A stretch of 64,000 bases of DNA. Source: Nitrosopumilus sp. (GTDB lineage Bacteria > Desulfobacterota > Binatia > UBA1149 > SPBQ01). A program made the position numbers and the translations under genes. Shown here piece after piece: positions 48,867 through 64,000 of the stretch (the stretch's first letter is position 1; each line of letters starts with the position of its first letter). The DNA is taken from contig CAXQPB010000119.1 in NCBI GenBank assembly GCA_964225545.1, positions 997-64,996 on the forward strand, in the 5' to 3' direction. Below the pieces are notes generated by a model, which worked only from the letters and a program-made list of their open reading frames with translations, searched no databases and was not told the origin of the DNA.

Positions 48867-50054
48867 TCATGCTCCGGCGGCGGCTCGGGAAGCGTTGTAC
48901 GCGGACGCGTGTTCCCGTGCCCACGTGTCGGTTGTCAGCAGCGTTTCGACATCTTCGTAGCCAACGGGTTCGTGTGCCTGCATGGCGGCTTTGATGATTC
49001 GCGGAATGTCCATGAACGCGATCTCGCCCGCCAGAAAACGGGCGACTGCGATCTCGTTCGCTGCGTTGGCGACTGCCGGCATCGTCCCGCCGGCTTCGAG
49101 AGCTTCAAACGCCAGACGCAGGCATGGAAAGCGCTCACGATCCGGTTCGAAGAAGTCCAGGCGCGATGCGGCAGGGAGATCGAGGCGAGGCAGGTAGCCG
49201 AGATCGAGCAGATCCGGATAAGCGAGAACGTGCCCGATCGGTATGGTCATATCCGGGATTGCCATCACCGCGATCACCGAGCCGTCTCGATACTCGACCA
49301 TCGAATGAACGATACTTTGGGGATGAACGACGACGCCGATGTCGGCGGGCTCCTGCTCGAAGAACCACCTCGCCTCGATGACCTCGAGCCCCTTGTTCAT
49401 GAGCGAAGCGGAATCGATGGTGATCTTGTCACCCATGTCCCATGTCGGATGGCGAAGCGCCTCTTCCCGACTCACGCGCTGAAGCTGTTCCGCAGTGTGC
49501 TCCCGGAACGGGCCTCCCGAGGCCGTGAGAATGATGCGACGCACGTGCTCACGGCGACGCCCTTCGAGCGCCTGGAAGATCGCGTTGTGCTCGCTGTCGA
49601 CCGGCAGAACCGTTGACCCGGAGGCGTGGGAGCGCCGGCAGACGAGCTCGCCGCCGATGACCATCACTTCCTTGTTGGCCAGACCGATATCGATGCCCGC
49701 GTCCACGGCGGCCAGGGTCGGCTCCAGGCCTACTGCACCGACAAGGGCCGACAGCAGGATATCGGCGCGCGTGCCCGCCGCCACCTCGATCAGCCCCGTG
49801 GGCCCGTGTTCGACTCGCGGCCCGTCGCCGGGCAGCGCGCGAGCAAGCTCGGCTGCGTCCTGAGGATCCGCCACCGACACGACCTCGGGACGGAATCTCT
49901 CGATCTGCTGCTTGAGCGTCTCTACTCGCCGACCGGCGGCGAGTCCTACGACACGGAAGCGGTCTTCAAAGCGACCGATCAATTCCAGTGCCGTGGTCCC
50001 GATGGAACCGGTGGACCCGAGAATGGAGACGCGTCTGGGATTGCCGGACGCCAC
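48867..50054 (-). CDS. dxr: 1-deoxy-D-xylulose-5-phosphate reductoisomerase
   Basis: ILGSTGSIG, LANKE, PVDSEHNAIFQ, TASGGPF, HPTWDMGDKITIDSA, NAANE. Confidence 0.97.
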   Translation of the reverse strand: MASGNPRRVSILGSTGSIGTTALELIGRFEDRFRVVGLAAGRRVETLKQQIERFRPEVVSVADPQDAAELARALPGDGPRVEHGPTGLIEVAAGTRADILLSALVGAVGLEPTLAAVDAGIDIGLANKEVMVIGGELVCRRSHASGSTVLPVDSEHNAIFQALEGRRREHVRRIILTASGGPFREHTAEQLQRVSREEALRHPTWDMGDKITIDSASLMNKGLEVIEARWFFEQEPADIGVVVHPQSIVHSMVEYRDGSVIAVMAIPDMTIPIGHVLAYPDLLDLGYLPRLDLPAASRLDFFEPDRERFPCLRLAFEALEAGGTMPAVANAANEIAVARFLAGEIAFMDIPRIIKAAMQAHEPVGYEDVETLLTTDTWAREHASAYNASRAAAGA

Positions 50055-50143
50055 GATGAGTCCGCACTTATTCGCTCCCACGCAGCCTGTCAAAAAGCCG
50101 GCCGACGATGGCGACCACGGCGCGTCCACGGCCTCGAATCCCG

Positions 50144-50172
50144 TTGACAAACTCCATGCCCGGCCGTACCGT
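50144..50172 (+). promoter_or_regulatory. Sigma70-type promoter upstream of the cobalamin riboswitch
   Basis: TTGACA (50144-50149), 17-nt spacer, TACCGT (50167-50172). Confidence 0.65.
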
Positions 50173-50179
50173 CTGCGAC

Positions 50180-50347
50180 CGAGCCGTCGCGAGGCCTGCG
50201 GGCCTCGAACAATCGGGAAAGAGGTGAAAATCCTCAACTGCCCCGCAACTGTGACGGGTACGAAAGCCGCTTGAAGCCACTGGGCACGGGCCTGGGAAGG
50301 CGCGGTGAGTAGGACGAACCCTCAGTCAGGATACCGAGGCGGCTCGC
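50180..50347 (+). ncRNA. Cobalamin riboswitch
   Basis: GGGAA.GAGGTGAAAATCCTC, CTGCCCCGCAACTGT, AGCCACTG...GGGAAGG and B12 box AGTCAGGATACC, directly upstream of a TonB-dependent receptor. Confidence 0.93.
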
Positions 50348-50389
50348 ACTTCAGATCCCGGGCACGGCGAGGGCCGTGCGAGGAGGAAC

Positions 50390-52483
50390 GTGACCGAGCC
50401 TCGCCTCGGATTTTCGGCTGCACGCGCGCTGATCGCAGCTGTGCTGATCTCGGCGCCGACGTTCGCCTTCGGCCGTCCCGCCGCAGCCACCGACAACGGT
50501 GAGTCCGTCGACGTACGTCCGGAGATCATTGTCAGCGGCGAGCTGACGACAGAATACGAATCGAGCGTCGATGCCACGGGATTCACCACCGTGATCCGTG
50601 CAGGCGAGGCGTGGCGGGGATACCGGACTGTCGGCGAGCTGCTCGGTCGCAGTGTCGGTCTGCGAGTGACGAACTTCGGAGGACCGGAGGATCTCTCGAC
50701 GGTTTCGGTCCGCGGGAGCGGCCCGGCACAGGTGAGAATCCTGCTCGACGGCGTGGCACTGACCCGCGCAGGCAACGCAGTGGTCAACCTGGCGGATATT
50801 CCTCTCGACGCCGTTGACCGCATCGAGATTCACAGGGGCTACACGCCGGTACGCTTCGCGAGCAGCGGAGCCTCGAGCGTCATCAACATTGTCACAAGAC
50901 AGGTCGAGGGGCCGACGCTGTCGAGCTCCGCCTCGTTCGGCTCTTTCACTACCGTAAAGGGCACGCTGAGCGGAGGAAGCCCGCTTACCGGCGGCACGCT
51001 GTCCGGTGTTCTTACGGTTCGCCACACCGACGGCGACTTCGAGTACATCGACGATCGCGGGACCCCGCTCAATCCCGACGACGACGTCGAGACCAAGCGC
51101 AAGAACAACGACTCCTCCTCGGTTGACGCGCTCGCTCGCTACGTCGTTCCACTCGGCAATTCGCGTCTGACAGTCACCAACGACGTTTTCTACAAAGACC
51201 GGGGAACTCCGGGCAACGGCGTCTCCCAGGCGCTTGACGCGCGGGTCCGCGGCCTGCGAAACATTTTCGCCGCGGACTGGACTTCGGAGGATGACCGCTA
51301 CGGCGCCGCTTTCGATTTCAGCTATCTCGATGAGATCGTCGAGGACCCGAGCAGCGCCGACACCCAGGAGGGCAACACCTCTCTGGGGCTGCCCTACGAC
51401 GAGGCGCACAACACGACCTCTGCTCTCGGTATCCGAGGTCGCGCAGCCCGACCGTTACCATTCGGCCAGTATCTCGAGGCAAGTATTGCGGGCGGCTTCG
51501 AGCGCTTCCTCGGCAGCTACCCGAAAAATCCGTTCTCCGGCAACGACGAGAGTCGCTTCAACCTCGCAGTCGCCGTCGGCGACGATATCTACATCGACCG
51601 GTGGAATTTCACGGCAACACTCCAGGTCCGGCACGAGTCGCTGTGGAATCGATTCAATTCGACTTTCGCCGGGATACCGGTCCCGACGGATGAGCGACCT
51701 GATAACTATGACGGCGCGACCAATCCGCGCCTCGGGCTTCGATGGGATCCCGTCCCGGCGCTGACGCTCAAAGGGAATCTGGGAACCTGGTTCCGCCCGC
51801 CTACCTTTCGCGAGCTTTTCGGAACGGACGGATTTACCGCTCCCAACCCGACGCTCGAACCGGAGTCGGGTTTCAATCGGGATGTCGGCTTCATTGCGCG
51901 GGGTGCCAGACTCGGACCGATTCGCAGCCCCGTGCTCGAGGGCGTTTATTTCGACAACGACCTCGAGGATCTCATCCTTCTGGTGACCACCGGCGGGAAC
52001 ATACCGGTTGCGACCAACTTCTCGCGGGCGAGGATCCGCGGCGTGGAACTTCGCGCGGCATTCGAGATCGGCCCTTTCCTCAGCGTCGAGGGAAACTACA
52101 CGCACCAGGACGGCGAGAACCGAAGCCGCGTCGTCGAGCTGCGCGGCCGTGAACTTCCCAACCTCCCTTCCGATGTCGCCTTCGCCAGACTTCTCTTTTC
52201 GCAGCCGAGTTTCAGCGTCGCCTATGAATTCGATTACCAGAGCGACGTCTTTCTCGACGATACGGAGAATCGGGAGCGCCGGCAGCCCGGCTACGGAACC
52301 CACAACCTCGAGCTCCTGTTCGCGCTCGGAGGAGGAGGGTTCCTTTTCAAGTTTCAGGCGATGAATCTGACCGACGAACAGTATTTCGATCGGTGGCAGT
52401 TCCCGCAGCCGGGGCGCGCCTTCTACGCGACCCTGAGCTACGAGAATCGTGACGTCGCGGCGAGTAACGGCGATGCGACCTGA
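50390..52483 (+). CDS. TonB-dependent receptor, probable cobalamin transporter (BtuB-like)
   Basis: Signal peptide, plug SVRGS...LLDGV...IEIHRG, FRPPTFRELF, NPTLEPE, QPGRAFYATLSY; under a B12 riboswitch. Confidence 0.9.
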   Translation: MTEPRLGFSAARALIAAVLISAPTFAFGRPAAATDNGESVDVRPEIIVSGELTTEYESSVDATGFTTVIRAGEAWRGYRTVGELLGRSVGLRVTNFGGPEDLSTVSVRGSGPAQVRILLDGVALTRAGNAVVNLADIPLDAVDRIEIHRGYTPVRFASSGASSVINIVTRQVEGPTLSSSASFGSFTTVKGTLSGGSPLTGGTLSGVLTVRHTDGDFEYIDDRGTPLNPDDDVETKRKNNDSSSVDALARYVVPLGNSRLTVTNDVFYKDRGTPGNGVSQALDARVRGLRNIFAADWTSEDDRYGAAFDFSYLDEIVEDPSSADTQEGNTSLGLPYDEAHNTTSALGIRGRAARPLPFGQYLEASIAGGFERFLGSYPKNPFSGNDESRFNLAVAVGDDIYIDRWNFTATLQVRHESLWNRFNSTFAGIPVPTDERPDNYDGATNPRLGLRWDPVPALTLKGNLGTWFRPPTFRELFGTDGFTAPNPTLEPESGFNRDVGFIARGARLGPIRSPVLEGVYFDNDLEDLILLVTTGGNIPVATNFSRARIRGVELRAAFEIGPFLSVEGNYTHQDGENRSRVVELRGRELPNLPSDVAFARLLFSQPSFSVAYEFDYQSDVFLDDTENRERRQPGYGTHNLELLFALGGGGFLFKFQAMNLTDEQYFDRWQFPQPGRAFYATLSYENRDVAASNGDAT

Positions 52484-53813
52484 GAGACGGAAACGCGCAG
52501 CGGTCTCGCTGGTCCTGGCCGCGCTCATTTCGCCGCTGGCTGTATCGCCCGGCGCTCATGCGCTTTGCGGCGACCTGAACACGGACGGCCACGTTGCGGC
52601 TACGGACGCGCTGGTCTCTCTTCAGGTCGTAGTGGCCGGCGGCTACCGACTGCGGGGAGACGTGAATCCGGAGTCGACGGGCGATGGAGAACTGACCGTC
52701 ACCGATTCGCTGCGCACCCTGCAGAGCGCGGTGTCGCTCACGATTCCGCGCTGCGCCGCCGCCGCCGGCAGCCTGCTGGTAGCGACGTCGTCGGTCAGCT
52801 TCGGGAACGGCGGACTCACCGAGGTTCGTCTGGACAATTTCGAGATCGAGCGGCAGCAGGAGGGGATAACGGCCGGCGACTCCGTCCTGCGAATGCACAA
52901 CGGACGGGCGTTTGTCCTCAACCGATTTGCTGCCAACAACCTGCAGGAGATCGATCTTGACGATCCCGACTTCGCCGCGCTCTCACAGTGCAGCCTCGGA
53001 AGCGGCGCCAATCCCCACGACGTTGTCCTGATTACCGAGGAAAAGGGTTACGTCACCCGATACGACAAACCCAGTCTTGGTGTCGTCGATCTCTCGGTCG
53101 ACAGCACCTGCGGCGGTTTCGTATCGAAACTCATCGATCTTTCTGCGCTTTCAGACAACGACGGCGTGCCGGAGATGGATCAGATGGCACTGATCGACGG
53201 ATCGCTCTTCGTCGCGCTGCAAAGACTCGACCGGAGAAATTTCTTCCTCCCGACCGGGCCCGGAACGCTGGCAGTCATCGACACAGTCTCGGATACGCTT
53301 ATCGGCGAAGTTCCATTGCAGATCGTCAACCCGTTCGCCGAGACCAAGGGGCTGATCTTCGAACCGTCGCTCGGCCGACTTTTCGTGGGTGGACCCGGGA
53401 CGCTCTTCACCAACCTCGAAGACGGTGGGATAGAGGCGGTCAACCCGCAGAGCGCGAGCTCGGAGGGCATCATTATCACCGGCGCGGAGCTCGGCGGGGA
53501 TCTGCTCGATTTCGTGATCGTCGGCAGCACGCGAGCTTATGCGATCGTTTCGGACCGAAGGTTCGTCGCCTCACTGGTCGAGGTCGATCTGACGACGCGC
53601 AGCGTCGTCGATACCCTTATCCAGAGCGAGTATTCCATTTCCGACATTGAACTCGACGAATCGGGAATACTTTGCGCCGCTGACCGCAATCCCCTCGCAC
53701 CGGGCCTGCGGTGTTTCGATATCGCGAGCAACCTCGAGTTGACCGAGGGGCCCGTGTTCGGCGGCCTGACGCCGTTCAACGTGATCTTCCGTCGATCACC
53801 CGGCTCGCGGTGA
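52473..53813 (+). CDS. Secreted protein: N-terminal dockerin-like module plus YncE/BtuG-like beta-propeller
   Basis: Signal ending AHA; CGDLNTDGHVAATDALVSLQ...GDVNPESTGDGELTVTDSLRTLQ; propeller-like ANPHDV..KGYVTRY and LAVIDTVSD; overlaps the receptor stop. Confidence 0.8.
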   Translation: MRPERRKRAAVSLVLAALISPLAVSPGAHALCGDLNTDGHVAATDALVSLQVVVAGGYRLRGDVNPESTGDGELTVTDSLRTLQSAVSLTIPRCAAAAGSLLVATSSVSFGNGGLTEVRLDNFEIERQQEGITAGDSVLRMHNGRAFVLNRFAANNLQEIDLDDPDFAALSQCSLGSGANPHDVVLITEEKGYVTRYDKPSLGVVDLSVDSTCGGFVSKLIDLSALSDNDGVPEMDQMALIDGSLFVALQRLDRRNFFLPTGPGTLAVIDTVSDTLIGEVPLQIVNPFAETKGLIFEPSLGRLFVGGPGTLFTNLEDGGIEAVNPQSASSEGIIITGAELGGDLLDFVIVGSTRAYAIVSDRRFVASLVEVDLTTRSVVDTLIQSEYSISDIELDESGILCAADRNPLAPGLRCFDIASNLELTEGPVFGGLTPFNVIFRRSPGSR

Positions 53814-53924: not shown

Positions 53925-54020
53925 TGGCGGAGAAGGGAGGGAGTCGAACCCTCCGCCGACCATAGAGGCCGGCATCACGGTTTTGAAGACCGGCCGGGCC
54001 ACCGGGCCCGATCCTTCTCC
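53925..54020 (-). tRNA. selC: tRNA-Sec (anticodon UCA)
   Basis: 8-bp acceptor GGAGAAGG/CCTTCTCC plus GCCA, 6-bp D stem, CTTCAAA anticodon loop, long variable arm, 5-bp T stem with TTCGACT; 96 nt. Confidence 0.95.
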
Positions 54021-54221: not shown

Positions 54222-56195
54222 ATGATGATGAGGAAGCTGTTCGGACTGCTCATACTGCTATGCAGCATCACCGTTACGCCGGGAACGGCGTCAGCGCTTT
54301 ACCGTGGAACCGAGTACGGAGATATGGACATCTCCGGCCGACTGCGGACCACGAATATCGTACGCCATCGGAACCTCGACAAGCTCGCGTTCATCATGCA
54401 GCGCAACGAGCTTCGTCTGCGTTTCGAATGGAAGTGGCTCCAGCGGGGCAAAGCGTTCAAGCGCTTCAAGAACAGCTGGCTCGACCGCTCGGACATCTTC
54501 CTGCTCTACCGTGGTGTGTACGACAGCGTCTACGACATCACGCCGGGCGGAATTCACAATGATACCGACTTCCAAGGCGATCCGGTCGCGGTCGGAGCGC
54601 GCTCGCTCGAGAGCATGACCGAGCAGCAGCGTCAGCGCGCGAAGTTCGAGAACCGGCTTCGTGAGTGGTACGTCGACCTTTACTTCAAAAAGATTCCGCT
54701 GACGCTTCGTATCGGGCGACAGCAGATCGTCTGGGGTGAGTCGGATGGCTTCCGAATGCTCGATCGCGCCAACACGCTCGATCTGAGCTGGCACTTTTTC
54801 CAGGAGCTTCCGCCGCCCGGTTACGGTTTCGATGACATTCGTAAGCCGTTCTTCAACGTCAAGGCGCTGTACGACTTCAAGCAGCTCGGCCCGCTGTCAC
54901 AGCCGTTCCTCGAGGCCTACTGGAACCCGGGCGACTGGGACCCCGGCTCGATCGCGTTCATGCCGCGACCGTGGGGCGTCCGGTTGCTCGACCCGATCAG
55001 CAATGCGCAGGGAACCGGTGCTCTGCAGTCAGGTTTCTGTGCCTTCGCCGAGGGCGGCCAGTGCGAGAGCCTGATGAACGGGACCGAGCTCTTCCGCAAC
55101 GGCGGATGGGATCGTAACCCGCTCGAAAACAGCCAGTTCGGAGTCCGCTTCCACTTCATCACTCCGAAGGGCTTCGAGATGACGTTCAACTACCTCTACC
55201 AGAGGTTCAGTCCGGACGGCTCGCCGACCGCCATCGTTCGCGGCGTCCCGATCGACAAGACATTCGCGGTTGCCGACACCGTCGGCTTCGGACCGCCGCG
55301 ACCCGGCGTCATCGACGCTCAGACCTATTGTGACGGTCTCCGTCGTCCGCCCGGATCGATCGGAGCGCCATGGGGTCAGAACCAGCTTTGTCTGGAATAC
55401 TTCGCTCCATACATTCACACGGTCGGATGGTCGATGAACTTCTTCGAGTCACGCTTCACGCAGACCGTCTGGCGCGTAGAGACGATTCTCGACTTCAACC
55501 TGCCGTTCTATGATGGCGACAAACAGGTCGCGCTCTTCGGCCGTTCCCCCAACGGCCCCACACTGATCCCGGGCATCTCCAACAAGCACATGTGGAAGGG
55601 CATGATCGCTTTCGATCGTCCGACATGGATCAAGTGGCTGAACAAGCAGACGACCTTCTTCGTCACCGGCCAGATGTTCTGGCACTACATCATCGACCAC
55701 GAGCCGCGCCGTTGTGCGATCGATGATGATCCGGCGAATGGATACACTTCAAGCTACCTCGAGAACTGCGGAAACGATACCGACCTCCTGCTTCCGGGTG
55801 AGTCGATGGGTCTGGTCGGGCCGCTCGACCTGCCGAAACTCGACGCTCCCGGAGGAAAAGGGCGAGACACGATTCACCAGTGGGAGGTCCTGATGACACT
55901 CGCGGTTCTGGGATTCTACAAAGGTGGATCGCTCGTGCCCGCGTTCATCTACATTCTCGACCCGGTGAACGCTTACTCCCAGGAGGTCGCGCTCGGAATG
56001 GACTGGTTCATCCGCCCGGATATTTCGGTCAATCTGACAACCCGTCTGATCTGGGCAGGACTGCCCTGGGATGCGTACAAGGGCCACAACAAGGATTCGG
56101 ATGTAGATCGCGGCGAGATCTTCGACCCGTGGTTCCGCGCCGGCGGCAGCCGTGGCCGCTCGGAGACAGGCATCCAGTTCACCTGGCAGTTCTAG
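54222..56195 (+). CDS. Outer-membrane beta-barrel protein, DUF1302-like
   Basis: Signal peptide, LREWYVD, LRIGRQQIVWGESDGFR, C-terminal IQFTWQF aromatic beta-signal. Confidence 0.75.
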   Translation: MMMRKLFGLLILLCSITVTPGTASALYRGTEYGDMDISGRLRTTNIVRHRNLDKLAFIMQRNELRLRFEWKWLQRGKAFKRFKNSWLDRSDIFLLYRGVYDSVYDITPGGIHNDTDFQGDPVAVGARSLESMTEQQRQRAKFENRLREWYVDLYFKKIPLTLRIGRQQIVWGESDGFRMLDRANTLDLSWHFFQELPPPGYGFDDIRKPFFNVKALYDFKQLGPLSQPFLEAYWNPGDWDPGSIAFMPRPWGVRLLDPISNAQGTGALQSGFCAFAEGGQCESLMNGTELFRNGGWDRNPLENSQFGVRFHFITPKGFEMTFNYLYQRFSPDGSPTAIVRGVPIDKTFAVADTVGFGPPRPGVIDAQTYCDGLRRPPGSIGAPWGQNQLCLEYFAPYIHTVGWSMNFFESRFTQTVWRVETILDFNLPFYDGDKQVALFGRSPNGPTLIPGISNKHMWKGMIAFDRPTWIKWLNKQTTFFVTGQMFWHYIIDHEPRRCAIDDDPANGYTSSYLENCGNDTDLLLPGESMGLVGPLDLPKLDAPGGKGRDTIHQWEVLMTLAVLGFYKGGSLVPAFIYILDPVNAYSQEVALGMDWFIRPDISVNLTTRLIWAGLPWDAYKGHNKDSDVDRGEIFDPWFRAGGSRGRSETGIQFTWQF

Positions 56196-56722: not shown

Positions 56723-56908
56723 CTTTTCTCCTCTCCGCGACTCTATACTAGCAGTCGTGAGCAAACCGCGCTTCAAGCCGCTCACGTCATTCGGGCGCCC
56801 GGTTTTCGCCGGCGCTCCAGACCCGGATTTCTGGCATACCCGAGCCCGGCGGCCAAGTGAGATTGGAGCGCATGGCCTGCACCCTTATGGGGTCATCAGT
56901 ATTCGGCC

Positions 56909-56938
56909 TTGACACGTTTCGTGCGGGGACATTAGTGT
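56909..56938 (+). promoter_or_regulatory. Putative sigma70 promoter of the 57022 gene
   Basis: TTGACA, 18-nt spacer, TAGTGT. Confidence 0.45.
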
Positions 56939-57021
56939 CTGAAGGAAGCAAATCCACCTCGCGATCCAGAATGAAGAAGCGCCGATTGGCGCGTCTGGCC
57001 CCTTTGGGGAGGGAAAATACA

Positions 57022-59325
57022 ATGATGAAACGAACGGGACTCGCCTGCGCTCTGATCGGCGCGGCAATGATGGCTTTCGGAATACCCGGAACGTCGTCGG
57101 CACAGACCAGCTGCGATACCTGCAGCGAAAACGGCAAGGTTCCCTGTGCCGTCAAAAGTTTTGACGCCGCCGCCGCCAAGTGTCGCAAAGCTCTTTCGAA
57201 GAACGTTGGAAAGATTCAGAAGACAGCAGCCAAGAACAGCGCTTCCTGTCACAAGGGACGCCTGGGCGGCAAAGTCGACGCCAGCGTCGACTGTAATGAT
57301 CCGGCTCAGGCCGACCCGAAGGGTAAGCTCTCGGGTGCGATCGCGAAGTTTTCGGCGGGGATCGGCAAGAGCTGCCCGAGCACGATCGGCAACACGGTCT
57401 TGAGCGAATACCTCTCCTGCCCGGAGCCCTGTGCTACGAGCACCGGCGCCAGCAACCCGCTGGCATCCTACACTGAGCTGGCGGATTGCCTCGGCTGCGT
57501 CGCGGCTGAGCAGGTTGCGGCTCGTGACCAGGCGATGCTGGGCAATCCGACCGCTCCGAACCCCGACAAAGCTGCGGCCGGTTGCCACGCGACATTCTCG
57601 AAGAGCTTCGACAAATACCTTGCGACGCTCGTCAAGAACCGCTCGAAGTGCCAGGACACGGCAGAGGCGAAGGCGGGTGCCTGCGGCTTCGGCAGCAGCA
57701 ACTGCTACGAAGACGACTCGAAGGGCAAGATCGCGGGCGCTTTGGCCACAGCGGAAGCCGGAGTGAGCGGCAAGTGCGCGGGCGTTGACTTCAGCCAGTT
57801 CAACCTCAGCGGCAGCTGCTCAGCGGTTACCAACTCAACCGAGTACAACAGCTGCGCGTCGTCCGAGACCACGACCGCCGGCCAGGGCACACTGAGCGAT
57901 ATCTACTCGCTGCCGGCGGCTGGCCTGTGCCCGACGGTCGTCCAGACCACGATCAGCGGCGCTTACGGCATCGAGTGCACGACCAATGCCGACTGCCTTG
58001 CTGCCCAGCAGTGCCTGCCAGCGGGCAGCGGCGTCAGCCGCTGCCAGACCGAAACAAGGCTGGACGTAGGGTGGACAGGCCAGGCCCATAATGTTGACAC
58101 GGTCGACGGGTACACGGTGGCGTCAGGCGTCACATGTCCGGAGAGTTCTGTCTGCAGCGACAACCCGGCCCAGTCCTGTACGACAAACGGCGATTGCGCC
58201 GATGAATGTGTCGACGCAGCGCCTTGCGGGCTGTGCACGCTCGACGGCATTTCTTCAAACTCGCCGCAGTATGCCTCGTTCCTGCGCTGCGAGGCAGATA
58301 CGGCCATTCCGTGCAGCACCCCATTCGCGTCCGATCCGGCCGCTTGCGGGGCGCTGACCAGCGATCTGTGCGGCTACTACCTCGGCCCACCGCTGCCGCT
58401 GAGCTCCGCAAACAGCCCGGTCTGTTCACTGCTCAGAATCGACCAGGACATCACTGGCGCGGCAAATCCGGATACCGGCGACACCGACTTCACGGTCAAC
58501 ATGCTGTCAAAGGTTCACCTTGGAATCGGACAGACCCAGCCCTGCCCCCTGTGTATCGGCGACACGACCCCGCTCGATGGCGTGAAATCGGGCACGTGTG
58601 ATTACGGCACCGAATCGGATTCTCATGCCGGCCAACCATGCGATGTGATGGGCTTCCAGGGAACGTTCGCGAACGAGGACGAGGGTCTGGGGCTCAGCCT
58701 CGATTGCCCGCCGAGCCCCGGGAAAAACATTTCCGGCGCGGGCCTGATCATCAACCTCGACTTCACTACCGGTGCCACCTCATTGCCCTTCGGGGTCGCG
58801 TGTGATGGCGCGCTCAGTGCTCTGGACTGCGCTTGCGGGCAGTGCGACAACGACACGACCCGGCCGTGCAATGCTGACTCGGACTGTGAGGCTCCCGGCA
58901 CCTGCTCGACGAACGGCGGCGGAGCGGCGGCAGCCCGGCAGCCGAACGGTTGCAACGATCTGGTATGCAACGATCAGGGAGACGGCAACGGGCTGTGCAC
59001 AGCAGGCCCGGCCAACTCGCTCCTCTACTGCGACGGCGATGTCCGAGCGAGTGGTGCCGGCTACCTTTCGTGCGCGACCAATGCCGACTGTGTCAGCAGC
59101 AACTCCATCTGTAACGGTGGTGATTGCGGGAACTGCACACTCAGCAGGACCCGACCGTGCTTCAACGACCCGGTCACGTTCGAGGGAAGCCCGGATCCGG
59201 AATTCCCGGTACTGGCAGCAACGTTCTGCCTCCCGCCGACCACCAACGGGGCGATCAACGCCGTCTCGGGTAGTCCGGGTCCTGCAAGAGTCAGAGTCCA
59301 GCAGACTGCCGTCCGCAAGTACTGA
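57022..59325 (+). CDS. Large secreted Cys-rich protein: two helical Cys repeats plus a 'GPPLPLS' core domain
   Basis: GGAGGG RBS, Sec signal, very high Cys content; homologous to the ORF at 62591. Confidence 0.85.
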   Translation: MMKRTGLACALIGAAMMAFGIPGTSSAQTSCDTCSENGKVPCAVKSFDAAAAKCRKALSKNVGKIQKTAAKNSASCHKGRLGGKVDASVDCNDPAQADPKGKLSGAIAKFSAGIGKSCPSTIGNTVLSEYLSCPEPCATSTGASNPLASYTELADCLGCVAAEQVAARDQAMLGNPTAPNPDKAAAGCHATFSKSFDKYLATLVKNRSKCQDTAEAKAGACGFGSSNCYEDDSKGKIAGALATAEAGVSGKCAGVDFSQFNLSGSCSAVTNSTEYNSCASSETTTAGQGTLSDIYSLPAAGLCPTVVQTTISGAYGIECTTNADCLAAQQCLPAGSGVSRCQTETRLDVGWTGQAHNVDTVDGYTVASGVTCPESSVCSDNPAQSCTTNGDCADECVDAAPCGLCTLDGISSNSPQYASFLRCEADTAIPCSTPFASDPAACGALTSDLCGYYLGPPLPLSSANSPVCSLLRIDQDITGAANPDTGDTDFTVNMLSKVHLGIGQTQPCPLCIGDTTPLDGVKSGTCDYGTESDSHAGQPCDVMGFQGTFANEDEGLGLSLDCPPSPGKNISGAGLIINLDFTTGATSLPFGVACDGALSALDCACGQCDNDTTRPCNADSDCEAPGTCSTNGGGAAAARQPNGCNDLVCNDQGDGNGLCTAGPANSLLYCDGDVRASGAGYLSCATNADCVSSNSICNGGDCGNCTLSRTRPCFNDPVTFEGSPDPEFPVLAATFCLPPTTNGAINAVSGSPGPARVRVQQTAVRKY

Positions 59326-59385: not shown

Positions 59386-59417
59386 CATGAGTGTTTTTCA
59401 CGGCCGGACGAGGCCGA

Positions 59418-60488
59418 TCAGGGGCGGGCAGGTACGTCAGGTTCCAGCTGAATGGAATCCCAATTCTGCTTGTCCTCGACACCCGCCTGCTTGTCCTCCT
59501 CGGACTTCCTGAATTCAGCGTCCTTCATCGAGAACTCGGCGAGTTTGATGAGTTTGAAAGCGCCGATGAAATCAATCGATATCGGGAAGGGCGCGCTGGC
59601 CATACTCGACTGGACATAGCTTCCGGACATCTTGTCGGAGCCGACCTCTCGAAACCCGTAAATCGCGATCGTCGTTCCGCCCCCAAGAGCCGGGTTTCCC
59701 TTCATCGTGGAGATCATCGCGAACTCGGTAGATTCAAGGTTGGGATCCTTTCGCAGCTCGAGCTCGTAGTCGTCAGCGCCGACCACGCGGTGTTCTCCCC
59801 CGACAAACAGGGAATACTCGGGCGACTCCAGCCGGTACCAGTTCTTGCCGGCTGCATCGATCTGAGCACTGGAAGGCATGAACAGGGACTTTCCCTGCCG
59901 CGCAGCCTCTACCTCGTCGGCGAAAGGGAGAACTCCATCGAGCCACTGAACGAATATCGTCTCGCCCGTAATCACGCTCGCTCCGTCAATCTCCTCAACC
60001 TTGGATCCATACCGGATCTTGACGATATTCGCGGCCGTCTGCTTCAGGGAGGGGCGCACGATCGTGATGATCGCCCAATCCTTGTCGTCGATCGCTGCGA
60101 GTCGTTCACTGAGGCCTTCGACTCCCGCGACCGGCAGGCCGTCCACCGCTGTAATAATGTCCCCTTTGAAGAGGGTCGCTCCCTTGGTGTGCTCGCCGCT
60201 GACCTCCTCGGTCAGAACTGCGCCCGTATCGCCCGGCATCAGAGGCCTGAGTTCCGCAGGGACCGGCGCGACGGGGAACGTCTGCTGTTTGTCCGACTTG
60301 AACTCGACCCGCATCCGGAATGTGGGGGCCGTATAGTAAAGGCCGAGCCAGACGGCGCCGACGTCGGCGCCGATCCGGCCATCGACCTTCGTGGTCTGCA
60401 GAAAGCCGACCGCGCGACCCGGAACCAGACCCAGGACCGCACAAATCAGGATTGCGCCCAGCATTTTCGTGTTCACCAGCTGCTTCAT
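59418..60488 (-). CDS. Exported PDZ-domain hypothetical protein
   Basis: Signal peptide; GAVLTEEV...LFKGDIITAVDGLPV PDZ-like segment. Confidence 0.7.
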   Translation of the reverse strand: MKQLVNTKMLGAILICAVLGLVPGRAVGFLQTTKVDGRIGADVGAVWLGLYYTAPTFRMRVEFKSDKQQTFPVAPVPAELRPLMPGDTGAVLTEEVSGEHTKGATLFKGDIITAVDGLPVAGVEGLSERLAAIDDKDWAIITIVRPSLKQTAANIVKIRYGSKVEEIDGASVITGETIFVQWLDGVLPFADEVEAARQGKSLFMPSSAQIDAAGKNWYRLESPEYSLFVGGEHRVVGADDYELELRKDPNLESTEFAMISTMKGNPALGGGTTIAIYGFREVGSDKMSGSYVQSSMASAPFPISIDFIGAFKLIKLAEFSMKDAEFRKSEEDKQAGVEDKQNWDSIQLEPDVPARP

Positions 60489-60893
60489 CAAGAACCTCCG
60501 AACGGAATATAAATCAGAATTTACGGGGATTTCGGCCACCGCCGGCGACACTCACCCGCGGAACAGGTGACGCCACGACCGGGGATGACAGGCACTTTCC
60601 GGGGAATTCCGACGTTCCAATCTGCTATACACGTGCGTGGATGAGGAAGGCAAATCTGACCGTTCCCCTTGTGCCATGCGGATTTCCGGCGGCGGACTGT
60701 GGCCCGTTCAGCTTGACAACCGAGGCTGGCAGCGGATAAATCCAATGAGGTTTCTGTAGGCCAGACGGCGACGAGACCCGAGCCGACACAACCGGGAAAC
60801 CCCGGTCGAGCTTTCGCGACGTGCTTCACGGTTTACCTGGACGACATGACGAACACGATCATTCACTCGACGAACAATTCAAGGAGCAGTGGG

Positions 60894-62378
60894 ATGCAGA
60901 GATGGACGAGCAGGTTGGCAGCGGCCGCCACAGCAATGGTGCTGGCAATCGGATCAGTCGGTTGCAGCGATGATGACGCCTCACGGCTGGTCACCCAGAT
61001 TTTCGGTAATCTACTCGGGTCGGGCGAGTACAGCTCGCTGAGCGTCACCGTCGATCAGGACGTTGTCGGAACACTCATCGATACCACCACCTGCGACATC
61101 GCCGATGCTCTCGAGAGCTGCGACGTCACGATCACCCCGGGTTCGGGGAACATGCAGGTCGCCAACGGCGAAATCCTCAGCAGCACGACATCGAGCACGC
61201 TGTACAGCGGGCCCATCCAGGTCACGATCGACAACTGCACCGATCCGATTCGGGCCTTCTCCAATCTCTTCCGCTGCGTCACCGTTGAGAACGCCGGTGA
61301 GATTGAGGTCCTCTTCGACGCAGACGCGACCTGCCAGCCCGGGTCCGACTGCGAGGAAGCGCCGCAAATCTGCGTGACCTCTGCCGGCGCGGACGATTTC
61401 TGCGGCGAGACGCCGCCGACGACGACAGTGTCGACGAGCTCGAGCACGACTACTTCGAACACCGATCCGCCGACGACGTCGACCTCGACCACGTCAACCA
61501 CGACCACATCCACAACCTTGCCGCAGCAGGCAACGCGATGTGACATCACCTTCAGCGTGACGAGCACCGCGCCCGGCGGCATACTCGGAGCGCTGTCCTT
61601 TAACACGGTTTACCCGCCAACCGGGAATTTCGACGGTTCCGCAGCGGCCGTCGATTGCACGGCCCTGGTCTCAGGCGTGCTCCCCTCGTTCAACAACCAG
61701 GAGCCGAACAACACTCTGTTGACGGGAATGATCGGTGTCCCTGGCTTCGGCGTCCCCGCCGATGTCAGCCAGTGTACGTACCTGTCCAACGACGGGATTC
61801 CCGAAGCCGTGGATTTCGCGATTACAGTGACAGACGCTGCGACGCCGGATCTGTCCGACGTAACAGCCACCACCACCGTGGAGATCACGGAAATCGCGTG
61901 TGACGATACGCCGGTGACGACCACGACTTCGCCGTCCACCTCGTCTTCGTCGAGTTCGACGTCGACCAGCAGCACGCTGACGACGACCACCACGGACGGA
62001 GGCGCTCTGGCCGAGTACGACGTGTTCTTCGCGATCGCAGAGGCAGCGACCTACGGTGCTCTCCAGTTCACGGCGAACTACGCCGCGGCCCCCGGAGGCT
62101 TCATCGGAAGCGGCGCTGGCGTCGACTGTGCCCTGGTGCCGGCAGCGAACACACTCAATGCCTTCAATGACATTGAGGCCGAGTCGAATCTGAACATCGG
62201 CATCATCGCCCTGTTCGGGTTCACCACGTCGGCTGGTGAGCAGATCGTGCGCTGCGGCTTCGAGGGGACCTCGATGCCTACGGCCGCCGACTTCGTCGTG
62301 GCCGTGCAGGATTCCTCGGATACAGGCGGACAGCCGCTCCCCGCGACGATTACGATCGGAAGCATCGTGCCCCGGTAG
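60894..62378 (+). CDS. Lipoprotein with Thr/Ser-rich linkers and two tandem cohesin-like repeats (putative scaffoldin)
   Basis: AAGGAG RBS; lipobox LAIGSVG|C; two homologous ~120-aa beta-rich repeats (GALSFNTVY/GALQFTANY), each preceded by a poly-Thr/Ser linker. Confidence 0.8.
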   Translation: MQRWTSRLAAAATAMVLAIGSVGCSDDDASRLVTQIFGNLLGSGEYSSLSVTVDQDVVGTLIDTTTCDIADALESCDVTITPGSGNMQVANGEILSSTTSSTLYSGPIQVTIDNCTDPIRAFSNLFRCVTVENAGEIEVLFDADATCQPGSDCEEAPQICVTSAGADDFCGETPPTTTVSTSSSTTTSNTDPPTTSTSTTSTTTTSTTLPQQATRCDITFSVTSTAPGGILGALSFNTVYPPTGNFDGSAAAVDCTALVSGVLPSFNNQEPNNTLLTGMIGVPGFGVPADVSQCTYLSNDGIPEAVDFAITVTDAATPDLSDVTATTTVEITEIACDDTPVTTTTSPSTSSSSSSTSTSSTLTTTTTDGGALAEYDVFFAIAEAATYGALQFTANYAAAPGGFIGSGAGVDCALVPAANTLNAFNDIEAESNLNIGIIALFGFTTSAGEQIVRCGFEGTSMPTAADFVVAVQDSSDTGGQPLPATITIGSIVPR

Positions 62379-62590: not shown

Positions 62591-64000
62591 ATGATTTCTT
62601 TCATGAGACACGCGCTTTCTGCGATTGCGCTCTTTGCGTGCGTCGCCGCCGCGCCCGGAACATCCGACGCGGCAAACGGAGACTGCGGTCAGCCGCTCAG
62701 CAACGGCGACATACCGACGGCATCAGATGCACTGAACACGCTTCAGACGGCCGTCCAGATCGCTGACTGCAACAACTTCGACGAGTGTGTCTGCGATGTG
62801 GACGGTAACGGTTCGGTGACCGCAACCGACGCGCTGACGCTGCTTCAGATTGCTACACAGATTCAAAGCGTCGACGCGCTGAATTGCGACTGTGGTTCAC
62901 CTGTCGAACGAGCCCAGTGCAGCTCCGGCCAGCTGGTCACTCTACCCGGGTCCGACATCGACGCCGGCTGGAACGGCCTGGGTCATAACCAGGGGCTGAT
63001 CGACGGCGCCGGAATCACGGCCGCGGTTGTGAAGCGCTGCGCTCTGGACAACGACATTGTCTGTAAGACCTCTGCAGACTGTCCGGGCGGGACATGCGAC
63101 CTGACTTGTCTTTGCGACAGCGACTCGCCGAGCGAGCAGCTTTGTGAAGTCACCGGCCCCACCGGCCCGGGTCGCTGCCTGAGAGACCTCAGTCTGTGCG
63201 AAGTCGACGCAGACTGCGCGAGTCCGCAGACGTGCGAGTCTTTCTTCGGTCCGCCGCTGCCACTCTCTTCCTCGGGGACACCGGCTTGCATCACGACATA
63301 CTTCGCCGAGCCCATTGTCGGCACGGCGGACTCAGGCACCGGCGAGGGTTCGGTTCGCGCATTCCTGCGCTCTCGCGTCCACCTCGGCGTGGGCGCGGCC
63401 ACCCCGTGCCCGACTTGCGGAGCGGCGAACCAGTCGCCTCAGGTGGGCGATACGTTCAGCTGTGGTAACGGGTCGCCGAATACCGGCGCCACCTGCACAG
63501 TGGACGCGGTCAGCCCGCTGTTCGGCGGTGTCTCGTTCGATTGCCCTCCCGATTCTGCGTCGAACGTGTCCGGGCAAGGACTCGCGATCATCTTCACCCA
63601 GGCGACAACTGGAATTGTTGAGCGGCAGGCGGTCCTGCCCTGTGCCGGCAACCTGGCATTCCTGCATCCTTCGTCCGGTGCCGCATTCTGCATGGATAAC
63701 CAGACAGAATCCTGTTCAACCAACTCCGACTGCACCCGCTGCACGGACGACCTGACACCGTGCGCCAGCGACGCGGAATGCAACCCGGGAGCAAGCTGCG
63801 CAGAATCTCCTGACCAGCCCATCTCCTGTGGAATCTACTGCCATTGTGGATTCTGCGGTGGCGGCACCGATGTTGACCAACCTTGCTTCAGTGACGCAGA
63901 CTGCGATGAGGGCGATACCTGTGCTCAGGGTGGCCAACCGGGCGGGCCGATCGGCCAGGCCAGTCCCAATGGCTGCGCTAACTTTATCTGCGGGCAGGAG
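62591..64000 (+). CDS. Secreted Cys-rich protein with N-terminal dockerin-like module; runs off the window end and is absent from the ORF track
   Basis: GGAGG RBS; MISFMRHALSAIALFACVAAAPGTSDAANGDCGQPLSNGDIPTASDALNTLQTAV...CDVDGNGSVTATDALTLLQIA...GWNGLGHN...FFGPPLPLSS; no stop noticed before 64000. Confidence 0.88.
   Translation, partial: MISFMRHALSAIALFACVAAAPGTSDAANGDCGQPLSNGDIPTASDALNTLQTAVQIADCNNFDECVCDVDGNGSVTATDALTLLQIATQIQSVDALNCDCGSPVERAQCSSGQLVTLPGSDIDAGWNGLGHNQGLIDGAGITAAVVKRCALDNDIVCKTSADCPGGTCDLTCLCDSDSPSEQLCEVTGPTGPGRCLRDLSLCEVDADCASPQTCESFFGPPLPLSSSGTPACITTYFAEPIVGTADSGTGEGSVRAFLRSRVHLGVGAATPCPTCGAANQSPQVGDTFSCGNGSPNTGATCTVDAVSPLFGGVSFDCPPDSASNVSGQGLAIIFTQATTGIVERQAVLPCAGNLAFLHPSSGAAFCMDNQTESCSTNSDCTRCTDDLTPCASDAECNPGASCAESPDQPISCGIYCHCGFCGGGTDVDQPCFSDADCDEGDTCAQGGQPGGPIGQASPNGCANFICGQE

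Follow-up and report, generated by a model that had tools for sequence, protein, structure and literature searches.

A cobalamin-riboswitch-led operon in a Binatia-lineage genome encodes a BtuG-like beta-propeller with a dockerin-fold module in place of a lipid anchor

We analysed a stretch of 64,000 nucleotides (the window) from an assembly deposited as Nitrosopumilus sp. and placed by GTDB in the Binatia (GCA_964225545.1, contig CAXQPB010000119.1, positions 997 to 64,996 of the forward strand). In this window a cobalamin riboswitch leads a two-gene unit, which encodes a BtuB-like outer-membrane transporter and a secreted protein of 446 amino acids plus stop (52473-53813, + strand; the target gene). 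The translation and an AlphaFold2 model divide the secreted protein into an N-terminal dockerin-fold module and a seven-bladed beta-propeller whose closest solved structures are the BtuG proteins of Bacteroides. Given the fold, the conserved linkage to transporter and riboswitch, and the surface anchors of relatives, the target protein is probably a BtuG analogue and the operon a two-part outer-membrane corrinoid uptake unit, with corrinoid binding as a prediction. An earlier note, made from the sequence alone, had proposed a BtuG analogue that carries a dockerin instead of a lipid anchor and is tethered through a cohesin scaffold. Its BtuG part is borne out by BtuG1-3 as top structural matches, by transporter and riboswitch linkage across several phyla, and by relatives with a lipobox or a type IX secretion system (T9SS) tail; the dockerin and the scaffold stood in part, as described below.

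The riboswitch aptamer (RF00174) lies at 50167-50358 on the + strand, in the leader of the operon. Rfam cmscan scores it at 103.6 bits (E 7.8e-25, against a gathering score of 31.5) over the full length of the model, positions 1-189. The source genome (3.94 Mb, 94% complete) holds two cobalamin riboswitches only, and this one was recovered in the genome-wide search. From its end to the start codon of the transporter gene there are 31 nt, both on the + strand. The transporter (697 amino acids, 50390-52483, + strand) has the Pfam domains Plug and TonB_dep_Rec_b-barrel. Its top NCBIfam model is TIGR01779 (TonB-B12) at 115.8 bits, far under the equivalog cut-off of 599.7; in sequence searches of the PDB it matches E. 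coli BtuB (E about 2e-15) and B. thetaiotaomicron BtuB1-3 (about 1e-9). Genomic context and these matches suggest a BtuB-like transporter. Direct reading of the sequence places the ATG of the target gene at 52473 and the TGA stop of the transporter gene at 52481-52483, which confirms a riboswitch-led TonB receptor gene overlapped, by 11 nt, by the target gene. Another possible start of the target gene is a GTG at 52449. Because the target gene is followed by a tRNA-Sec gene on the opposite strand (53929-54020, - strand), the riboswitch unit consists of the transporter and target genes only. As a side observation, tRNA-Sec is also located 3' of the propeller gene in 13 related loci (L011, L012, L014, L020, L023, L027, L017, L018, L019, L021, L024, L025, and L028).

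The AlphaFold2 model of the target protein, built from an 85-sequence alignment, has a mean predicted local distance difference test score (pLDDT) of 93.4 and a predicted template modelling score (pTM) of 0.90. It contains helices at residues 43-54 and 76-88, followed by beta-blades over residues 100-440. The assignment of the propeller (residues 100-446; 52770-53810, + strand) is supported by Foldseek, VIA-align, and family profiles. In a Foldseek search against the PDB, the top propeller matches were BtuG2, BtuG1, and BtuG3 (E 9e-16 to 1e-13), with entries 8ptf (BtuG2, E 9.4e-16), 8ptd (BtuG1), 8blw_B (BtuB1-BtuG1), 8okv (BtuG3), and 3dsm. BtuG entries occupy ranks 1-4 and 6-10, and XusB and generic propellers rank lower. 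In VIA-align, nine BtuG-family entries gave Z scores of 30.6-31.4, with a root-mean-square deviation (rmsd) of 2.7-3.1 over 303-311 residues. The best non-BtuG comparator, 1l0q, reached 29.5; 1ri6 reached 28.7, the N2O reductases about 27.7, and generic propellers about 27-28.7. The comparison with BtuG that the earlier note had called for therefore returned the predicted propeller behind the module.

Sequence searches with the target protein alone (phmmer) did not find BtuG in the PDB; family profiles match nine distinct BtuG sequences at E 0.005-0.02. Under the homology criterion of Wexler et al. 2018 (BlastP e<1e-10 to BT1490/BT1954/BT2095), the target protein falls outside BtuG. Like B. 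thetaiotaomicron BtuG1/2/3 (3DSM, 8BAI, 8PTF, 8PTD, 8OKV, 8BLW), the target has a seven-bladed propeller of the same size, its gene adjoins a BtuB-like transporter gene under a cobalamin riboswitch, and its relatives, as lipoproteins or T9SS cargo, are by implication surface proteins. In contrast to BtuG, it shares only 12-16% identity with these proteins, without BLAST-level homology, and has neither a lipobox nor the Bacteroidota lipoprotein export signal, the place of which is taken by the dockerin-fold module. Its family is found in Binatia-like, Myxococcota-labelled, and FCB-group (Fibrobacteres-Chlorobi-Bacteroidetes) metagenome-assembled genomes (MAGs). A passage of Wexler et al. 2018 (PMC6143338) states that BtuG is exclusive to Bacteroidetes, and a preprint on transporter lids places nearly all lid-transporter pairs in Bacteroidota (10.1101/2023.03.17.533168). 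The relevant passages of a 2026 review discuss BtuH and BtuJ beyond Bacteroidota, and do not do so for BtuG. Within the article texts that it covered, our literature search returned no description of BtuG-like proteins outside Bacteroidota and none of a dockerin module combined with a propeller.

The family of the target protein is large. An exhaustive search returned 1752 representative clusters at E<=1e-3, 914 at E<=1e-10, and 155 at E<=1e-30; a word-indexed search returned 127 matches. With the close alignment A2 we located 78 related loci in species-representative genomes. These are labelled Candidatus Binatia, 'Myxococcales' or 'Deltaproteobacteria' MAGs, Latescibacterota, Krumholzibacteriota, Eisenbacteria, Nitrospirota, and Gemmatimonadaceae, together with one Gammaproteobacteria MAG. 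Sixty-eight of the 78 loci include 1.5 kb or more of upstream sequence and could be evaluated for linkage (the other 10 could not); in 66 of them, a homologue of the window's transporter is encoded immediately before the propeller gene and in the same orientation. The exceptions are L058, where none was found, and L077, where the transporter gene is downstream.

A first Rfam scan of 13 loci detected RF00174 in 8. A 7-seed nhmmer profile recovered the riboswitch, upstream of the gene and in the same orientation, in 45 loci out of 78. Sixty-one loci contain the transporter start and at least 250 nt upstream of it, our requirement for evaluating a locus, and 43 of these have the riboswitch. The 18 evaluable loci scored as negative, taken across the anchor classes, remained negative (18/18) in an Rfam re-scan. 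In three loci a second riboswitch is located between the transporter and propeller genes (L030:4345-4473, L038:4296-4422, and L062:4338-4471). Because it directly precedes the propeller gene, each gene in these loci has its own aptamer, and this is the most direct link of the propeller itself to B12.

The relatives differ in how their N-termini would place them in the cell envelope, and we sorted them accordingly. Class A, the type found in the window, starts with an ALCGD dockerin-like module (19 loci; riboswitch in 4/17 evaluable). Class B has a dockerin- or EF-like module with the motif CxGDC(N/D)GD (6 loci; 3/6). Class C, with about 23 loci, carries a lipobox (riboswitch in 18/20), class D a Cys-rich domain of ~170 amino acids (8 loci; 6/6), and class E a plain signal peptide (17 loci; 12/12). 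In five further loci the N-terminus is truncated or unclear, and none of these was evaluable for the riboswitch. Outside the dockerin-type clades, the riboswitch is thus present in 36 of 38 evaluable loci. The class D loci include the three with a second riboswitch. Eight of ten class E proteins tested contain a T9SS type A sorting domain (TIGR04183) above the cut-off; in L073 the match was below the cut-off, and L077 had none. This is the survey of lipobox against dockerin N-termini that the earlier note had suggested.

A quick IQ-TREE search was used to calculate an unrooted phylogeny of 72 propeller cores, comprising the window and 71 loci (the five unclear loci and the truncated L069 and L087 were left out). 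Class A forms one clade, as does class D, each with a Shimodaira-Hasegawa-like approximate likelihood ratio test (SH-aLRT) support of 100. The phylogeny requires 6 changes of anchor label, compared to 40.7 for shuffled labels. Anchor types are each largely confined to their own clade, and class A is nested among lipobox clades. The lipobox and T9SS forms among the relatives argue for a propeller family that acts outside the outer membrane; from these relatives we infer the same location for the target protein itself. By fold and by comparison with relatives, the dockerin-type tag sits where those relatives have a lipid anchor.

The N-terminus of the target protein begins with a basic and hydrophobic signal peptide (residues 1-30; 52473-52562, + strand), with a predicted signal peptidase I (SPase I) site AHA/L in the cleavage region SPGAHA/LCGD. 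In alignment A4, which holds 19 sequences (the window and 18 related loci), all 19 have small residues at -3 and -1 and Leu right before an invariant Cys, and none of the 19 has a lipobox in the signal region. The constant Leu before the Cys and the small residues at -3 and -1 identify this as an SPase I site rather than a lipobox, in agreement with the earlier note.

The mature protein starts with a module of two loop-helix repeats bracketed by Cys32 and Cys94 (52566-52754, + strand), whose codons are located at 52566-52568 and 52752-52754. Across 53 relatives, C32, C94, D34, G39, D45, D63, and D78 do not vary. The first loop (D34-L-N-T-D38-G-H-V-A-A-T-D45) follows the canonical dockerin/EF-hand pattern D-x-N-x-D-G-x(5)-D. 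In the second loop D63, D71-G, and D78 are invariant, with an insert of variable length between D63 and D71-G. Class A has an atypical second Ca2+ loop except in a sub-clade of three loci (L023, L024, and L025). There the loop is canonical, D-I-N-R-S-G-N-I-E-A-S-D, and the linker between the two repeats contains an additional Cys pair. A short conserved CAAA stretch joins the module to blade 1 without a flexible linker.

Pfam Dockerin_1 (PF00404) scored the isolated module at 16.5 bits, below its cut-off of 22.9, and matched the first repeat only; in the genome scan the same module scored 13.9 bits. The whole target protein matched nothing in Pfam and NCBIfam except PhnJ, at a chance level of 15.9 bits. 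Its best sequence match in the PDB was the CelS dockerin (E 0.19); with the A1 family profile, the match to this dockerin (1daq) improved to E 0.0084 and spanned positions 3-59 of its 71 residues. The model of the isolated module has a pLDDT of 91.3. In Foldseek, its top 12 rows were all dockerin chains from cohesin-dockerin complexes, with template modelling (TM) scores of 0.5-0.8; examples are 4uyp_B (TMq, on the query, 0.70), 2vn6_B (TMt, on the matched chain, 0.73, rmsd 2.3), and 2vn5_B (TMt 0.81, rmsd 2.0). Calmodulin-type EF hands reached TM scores of only 0.2-0.3. No row had E<=0.001, as expected for 69 residues.

The module thus compares with type I dockerins (PF00404; C. thermocellum CelS 1DAQ, C. 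cellulolyticum 2VN5/2VN6) in its ~65 residues, two loop-helix repeats, and canonical first Ca2+ loop, and its fold matches dockerins only (TM 0.6-0.8 and rmsd 2.0-3.2 in the best rows). In contrast to them, it is below the Pfam threshold, is N-terminal instead of C-terminal, is bracketed by an invariant Cys pair, has a variable insert in its second loop, and is fused to its passenger without a linker in a non-cellulolytic setting. On the modelled structure we describe it as a module with a dockerin fold that lies outside dockerin as delimited by the Pfam threshold. The Cys-bracketed dockerin of the earlier note, and with it the dockerin instead of a lipid anchor, holds in its exact coordinates, in its fold, and in the comparison with relatives, and does not hold by the Pfam score.

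The scaffold suggested by the earlier note is the open reading frame (ORF) 60894-62378 (+ strand). Its translation is that of a lipoprotein (lipobox region GSVGC/SDDD) with Thr/Ser-rich linkers and two divergent domains of ~130 amino acids each (61518-61895 and 61998-62375, + strand). Pfam cohesin (PF00963) did not match any of the three pieces scanned, even at E<=10. A 22-sequence profile of the repeat aligned by hhalign with a 16-sequence cohesin profile at a probability of 78% (E 1.8e-5, score 36.6, 80 columns); among the controls, none of 60 column shuffles exceeded 17.5, a reversed run gave 11.4, and unrelated alignments gave 16.0 and 9.8. The nearest named ESM-Atlas clusters carry Cohesin at a score of 0.88, which is below the 0.9 line and serves as a lead only. 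What stands of the earlier claim is a lipoprotein with two remotely cohesin-like repeats.

The repeat was found in 19/19 class A genomes, with 2-21 matches each, and in 0/6 class B genomes; it co-occurs with the class A dockerin type in 20/20 genomes. In a 121-genome sample of the phylum, only the source genome (15 copies) and a second member of its order (27 copies) contain the repeat. The class A module profile matched the same two genomes (22 and 48 copies) and gave two weak matches in one other. All of these occurrences fall within one lineage, so that shared ancestry confounds the co-occurrence and it does not count as independent evidence. Some open frames of either genome combine the two modules (examples are on C44 and C78 in the source genome and on C31, C42, C11, and C7 in G084). 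Distribution and profile similarity together look as one would expect for a lineage-specific cohesin analogue. A predicted complex of residues 222-510 of ORF 60894-62378 with the module scored 0.08 against a mark of 0.32, in a run without controls, and speaks neither for nor against binding.

Compared to cohesins and scaffoldins (PF00963), ORF 60894-62378 is similar in its tandem ~130-amino-acid domains, Thr/Ser-rich linkers, and lipobox-anchored protein, and some members of its family also carry the dockerin-like module, as adaptor scaffoldins do. It differs in having no Pfam match and in a family confined to one order in the sampled phylum. A tether through this scaffold is a live and plausible hypothesis with a concrete candidate partner family, which we consider less likely than not. 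In the window, the candidate scaffold is followed by a Cys-rich ORF (62528->64000, + strand) with a second dockerin-like module of the same type at its N-terminus (62684-62866, + strand; Pfam Dockerin_1 29.6 bits, above the cut-off; A4 profile 33.7 bits). Just past the window, a 468-amino-acid frame (G000:C119:65681-66865) contains two more domains of the ORF 60894-62378 type (P0122-type), and the three genes form a putative docking cluster.

The mechanism we favour combines these elements. The transporter and the exported BtuG-like propeller would form a corrinoid uptake pair, with the propeller outside the outer membrane, where one of its faces would capture cobalamin or other corrinoids. 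The propeller would cap the BtuB-like transporter and pass the corrinoid on to it, and at high intracellular B12 the riboswitch would shut off both genes. Export would proceed via the SPase I signal, leaving at the mature N-terminus a rigid, disulfide-bracketed Ca2+-loop module of dockerin fold directly on blade 1. This module would be what the lineage uses in place of the lipobox or T9SS tail of its relatives. Most likely it would keep the propeller on the cell by attaching to a protein of the cell surface, for which the cohesin-like lipoprotein family of ORF 60894-62378 is the best candidate.

Several observations weigh against this mechanism, and they concern the ligand, the location, and the module. 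With respect to the ligand, VIA-align separates BtuG from generic seven-bladed propellers by only about 1.5-3 Z units, a genuine lead but a small one. At the sequence level the relationship to BtuG is marginal, and the residues at the B12-contact positions differ in identity. In the profile alignment, which also counts in favour of a link to BtuG because the aligned positions are conserved within the family, S131, R133, I148, and W149 of BtuG2 are opposite N180, H182, Y197, and D198 of the family (the BtuG2 numbering was checked: chain index + 46 gives Ile148-Trp149). N180, H182, and Y197 are nearly invariant in the target's family and differ from their BtuG2 counterparts, of which S131, I148, and W149 appear as cobalamin contacts in a passage of 10.1101/2024.02.16.580637. 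The siderophore-binding lid XusB is also a good structural match. Furthermore, class A has the riboswitch in only 4 of its 17 evaluable loci, besides the window, so that most orthologues in the dockerin-type clade are not B12-regulated by a riboswitch. Evidently, the regulation of the pair has turned over within the target's clade. As an observation on gene order, the 13 evaluable class A loci without a cobalamin riboswitch by nhmmer or Rfam (L012-L014, L017-L021, L023-L025, L028, and L069) keep the dxr / transporter / propeller / tRNA-Sec synteny.

The loci without a riboswitch, the XusB match, and the differing contact residues would fit a propeller that is a generic transporter lid or binder for a non-corrinoid ligand, with the riboswitch in the window regulating the transporter only. 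XusB, a Bacteroides xenosiderophore lipoprotein (9HQK/9HQE), resembles the target as the propeller lid of a TonB-dependent transporter and matches its structure strongly (E 5e-12). However, XusB matches less well than all BtuG entries, which are above it in both structure searches, and it is tied to siderophore uptake, whereas the target's family is tied to cobalamin riboswitches. The near-universal riboswitch outside the dockerin-type clades, the three loci with a riboswitch directly before the propeller gene, and the BtuB proteins as best named solved relatives of the transporter also argue against a non-corrinoid ligand, and we regard this alternative as improbable.

With respect to location, the target protein has a Sec/SPase I signal only, with no recognised outer-membrane export signal. 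It could then reside in the periplasm, where it would bind B12 as a shuttle or chaperone on the way from the transporter to an inner-membrane ATP-binding cassette importer. The operon contains no btuF, and the Joint Genome Institute labels some of the relatives 'YncE', the E. coli namesake of which is periplasmic. In contrast, the T9SS type A sorting domains in 8/10 tested relatives imply export past the outer membrane, dockerin folds are typical of extracellular proteins, the closest structures are surface lids, and a BtuF/BtuC-like pair is present on another contig of the source genome. A periplasmic protein is therefore a very improbable reading. The earlier note was correct that the window has no btuFCD or tonB genes: the TonB_C, FecCD, and Peripla_BP_2 matches in the source genome are all on other contigs (BtuD was not searched for). 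As physiological context in favour of the uptake model, a CbiC match is absent from this genome at its 94% completeness, and the BtuF/BtuC-like pair is present.

With respect to the module, its attachment to blade 1 without a flexible linker means that it could be a structural cap rather than a tether, and Pfam cohesin was found in 0/19 of the sister genomes that share the class A module. The protein may thus capture B12 as BtuG does while its module, having no cohesin-type partner, serves as a cap stabilised by Ca2+ and a disulfide; the protein would either stay on the cell solely through its own contact with the transporter, or leave it as a soluble, hemophore-like 'cobalaminophore'. The passage from Cys94 into blade 1 and the pTM of 0.90 for the whole protein, which implies a fixed orientation, agree with a cap, as does the non-canonical second Ca loop. 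According to a section of PMC10404256, Bacteroides BtuG binds BtuB via the propeller itself. On the other hand, the module type occurs about 22-30 times in the source genome on unrelated proteins, which fits a shared sorting or docking tag better. It also co-expands with the cohesin-like domain family, and the two are found on shared polypeptides, as in adaptor scaffoldins. We consider the cap a possibility to be taken seriously, and still expect the module to be a tether.

The source genome has two Pfam cohesins, both on contig C92. We set these aside as the general partner: because none of the 19 class A genomes has a Pfam cohesin, a canonical cohesin cannot be the general partner of the class A module. 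Pfam cohesins were found in 6/6 genomes of class B, 2/10 of the lipobox class, 1/5 of the Cys-rich class, and 3/6 of the T9SS class. It is conceivable, though doubtful, that one Binatia-like order runs a surface display system that is invisible to Pfam and analogous to cohesin-dockerin. Such a system would comprise ~20-50 tagged secreted proteins per genome, with the BtuG-like propeller among the cargoes, and lipoprotein 'scaffoldins' built of the cohesin-like domain (15-27 copies per genome). Vitamin scavenging would then run through a modular docking platform instead of a lipid anchor. The dockerin-type clade points to a possibly new cohesin-like partner family.

In the 914-cluster family (E<=1e-10), a BtuG-like propeller is associated with BtuB-like transporters and with B12 riboswitches across uncultured lineages from soil, groundwater, and marine settings, including Binatia-like, Myxococcota-labelled, Latescibacterota, Krumholzibacteriota, Nitrospirota, and Gemmatimonadota MAGs. 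On this reading, the BtuG-type capture system would extend well beyond Bacteroidota. If the prediction of B12 binding is true, lid-assisted corrinoid piracy is a widespread strategy and not a speciality of gut Bacteroides. The swappable anchors (lipobox, T9SS tail, Cys-rich domain, and dockerin fold) amount to a natural experiment on the surface placement of one protein in diderms.

The second cobalamin riboswitch of the source genome (G000:C120:55789-55999, - strand) precedes a gene for a 521-amino-acid secreted protein (L095:10269-11834, - strand). This protein has no Pfam family and consists of an NHL-type (PknD-sensor-like) propeller and a C-terminal Cys-rich domain, which resembles the Cys-rich N-domain of the class D relatives of the target. 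The propeller of this protein (P0270) was rejected as a paralogue of the target propeller, to which it is unrelated in sequence (hhalign probability 0.9%); its PDB matches are to PknD-derived 'Pizza' designs.

On contig C92 (L089; G000:C92:52000-66000), two smaller proteins with C-terminal dockerins are encoded between two giant proteins of 1573 and 1450 amino acids. Each giant protein contains one Pfam cohesin and 10-13 Dictyostelium-type Cys-rich repeats, and the four proteins form a compact, non-cellulosomal cohesin-dockerin cluster.

On the other side of the riboswitch, the window contains a divergent dxr gene (DXP reductoisomerase, that is, 1-deoxy-D-xylulose 5-phosphate reductoisomerase; 48867-50237, - strand). 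Its longest ORF overlaps the riboswitch, so that the true start of dxr is further inside this ORF. Downstream of the operon, a gene for a DUF1302 outer-membrane-type protein (54222-56195, + strand) is followed by ORFs 56857-59325 and 59391-60512, for which a Pfam scan returned no family. In many class A loci the propeller gene is followed by ORFs of ~650-700 amino acids, which by size comparison alone are similar to the DUF1302 gene.

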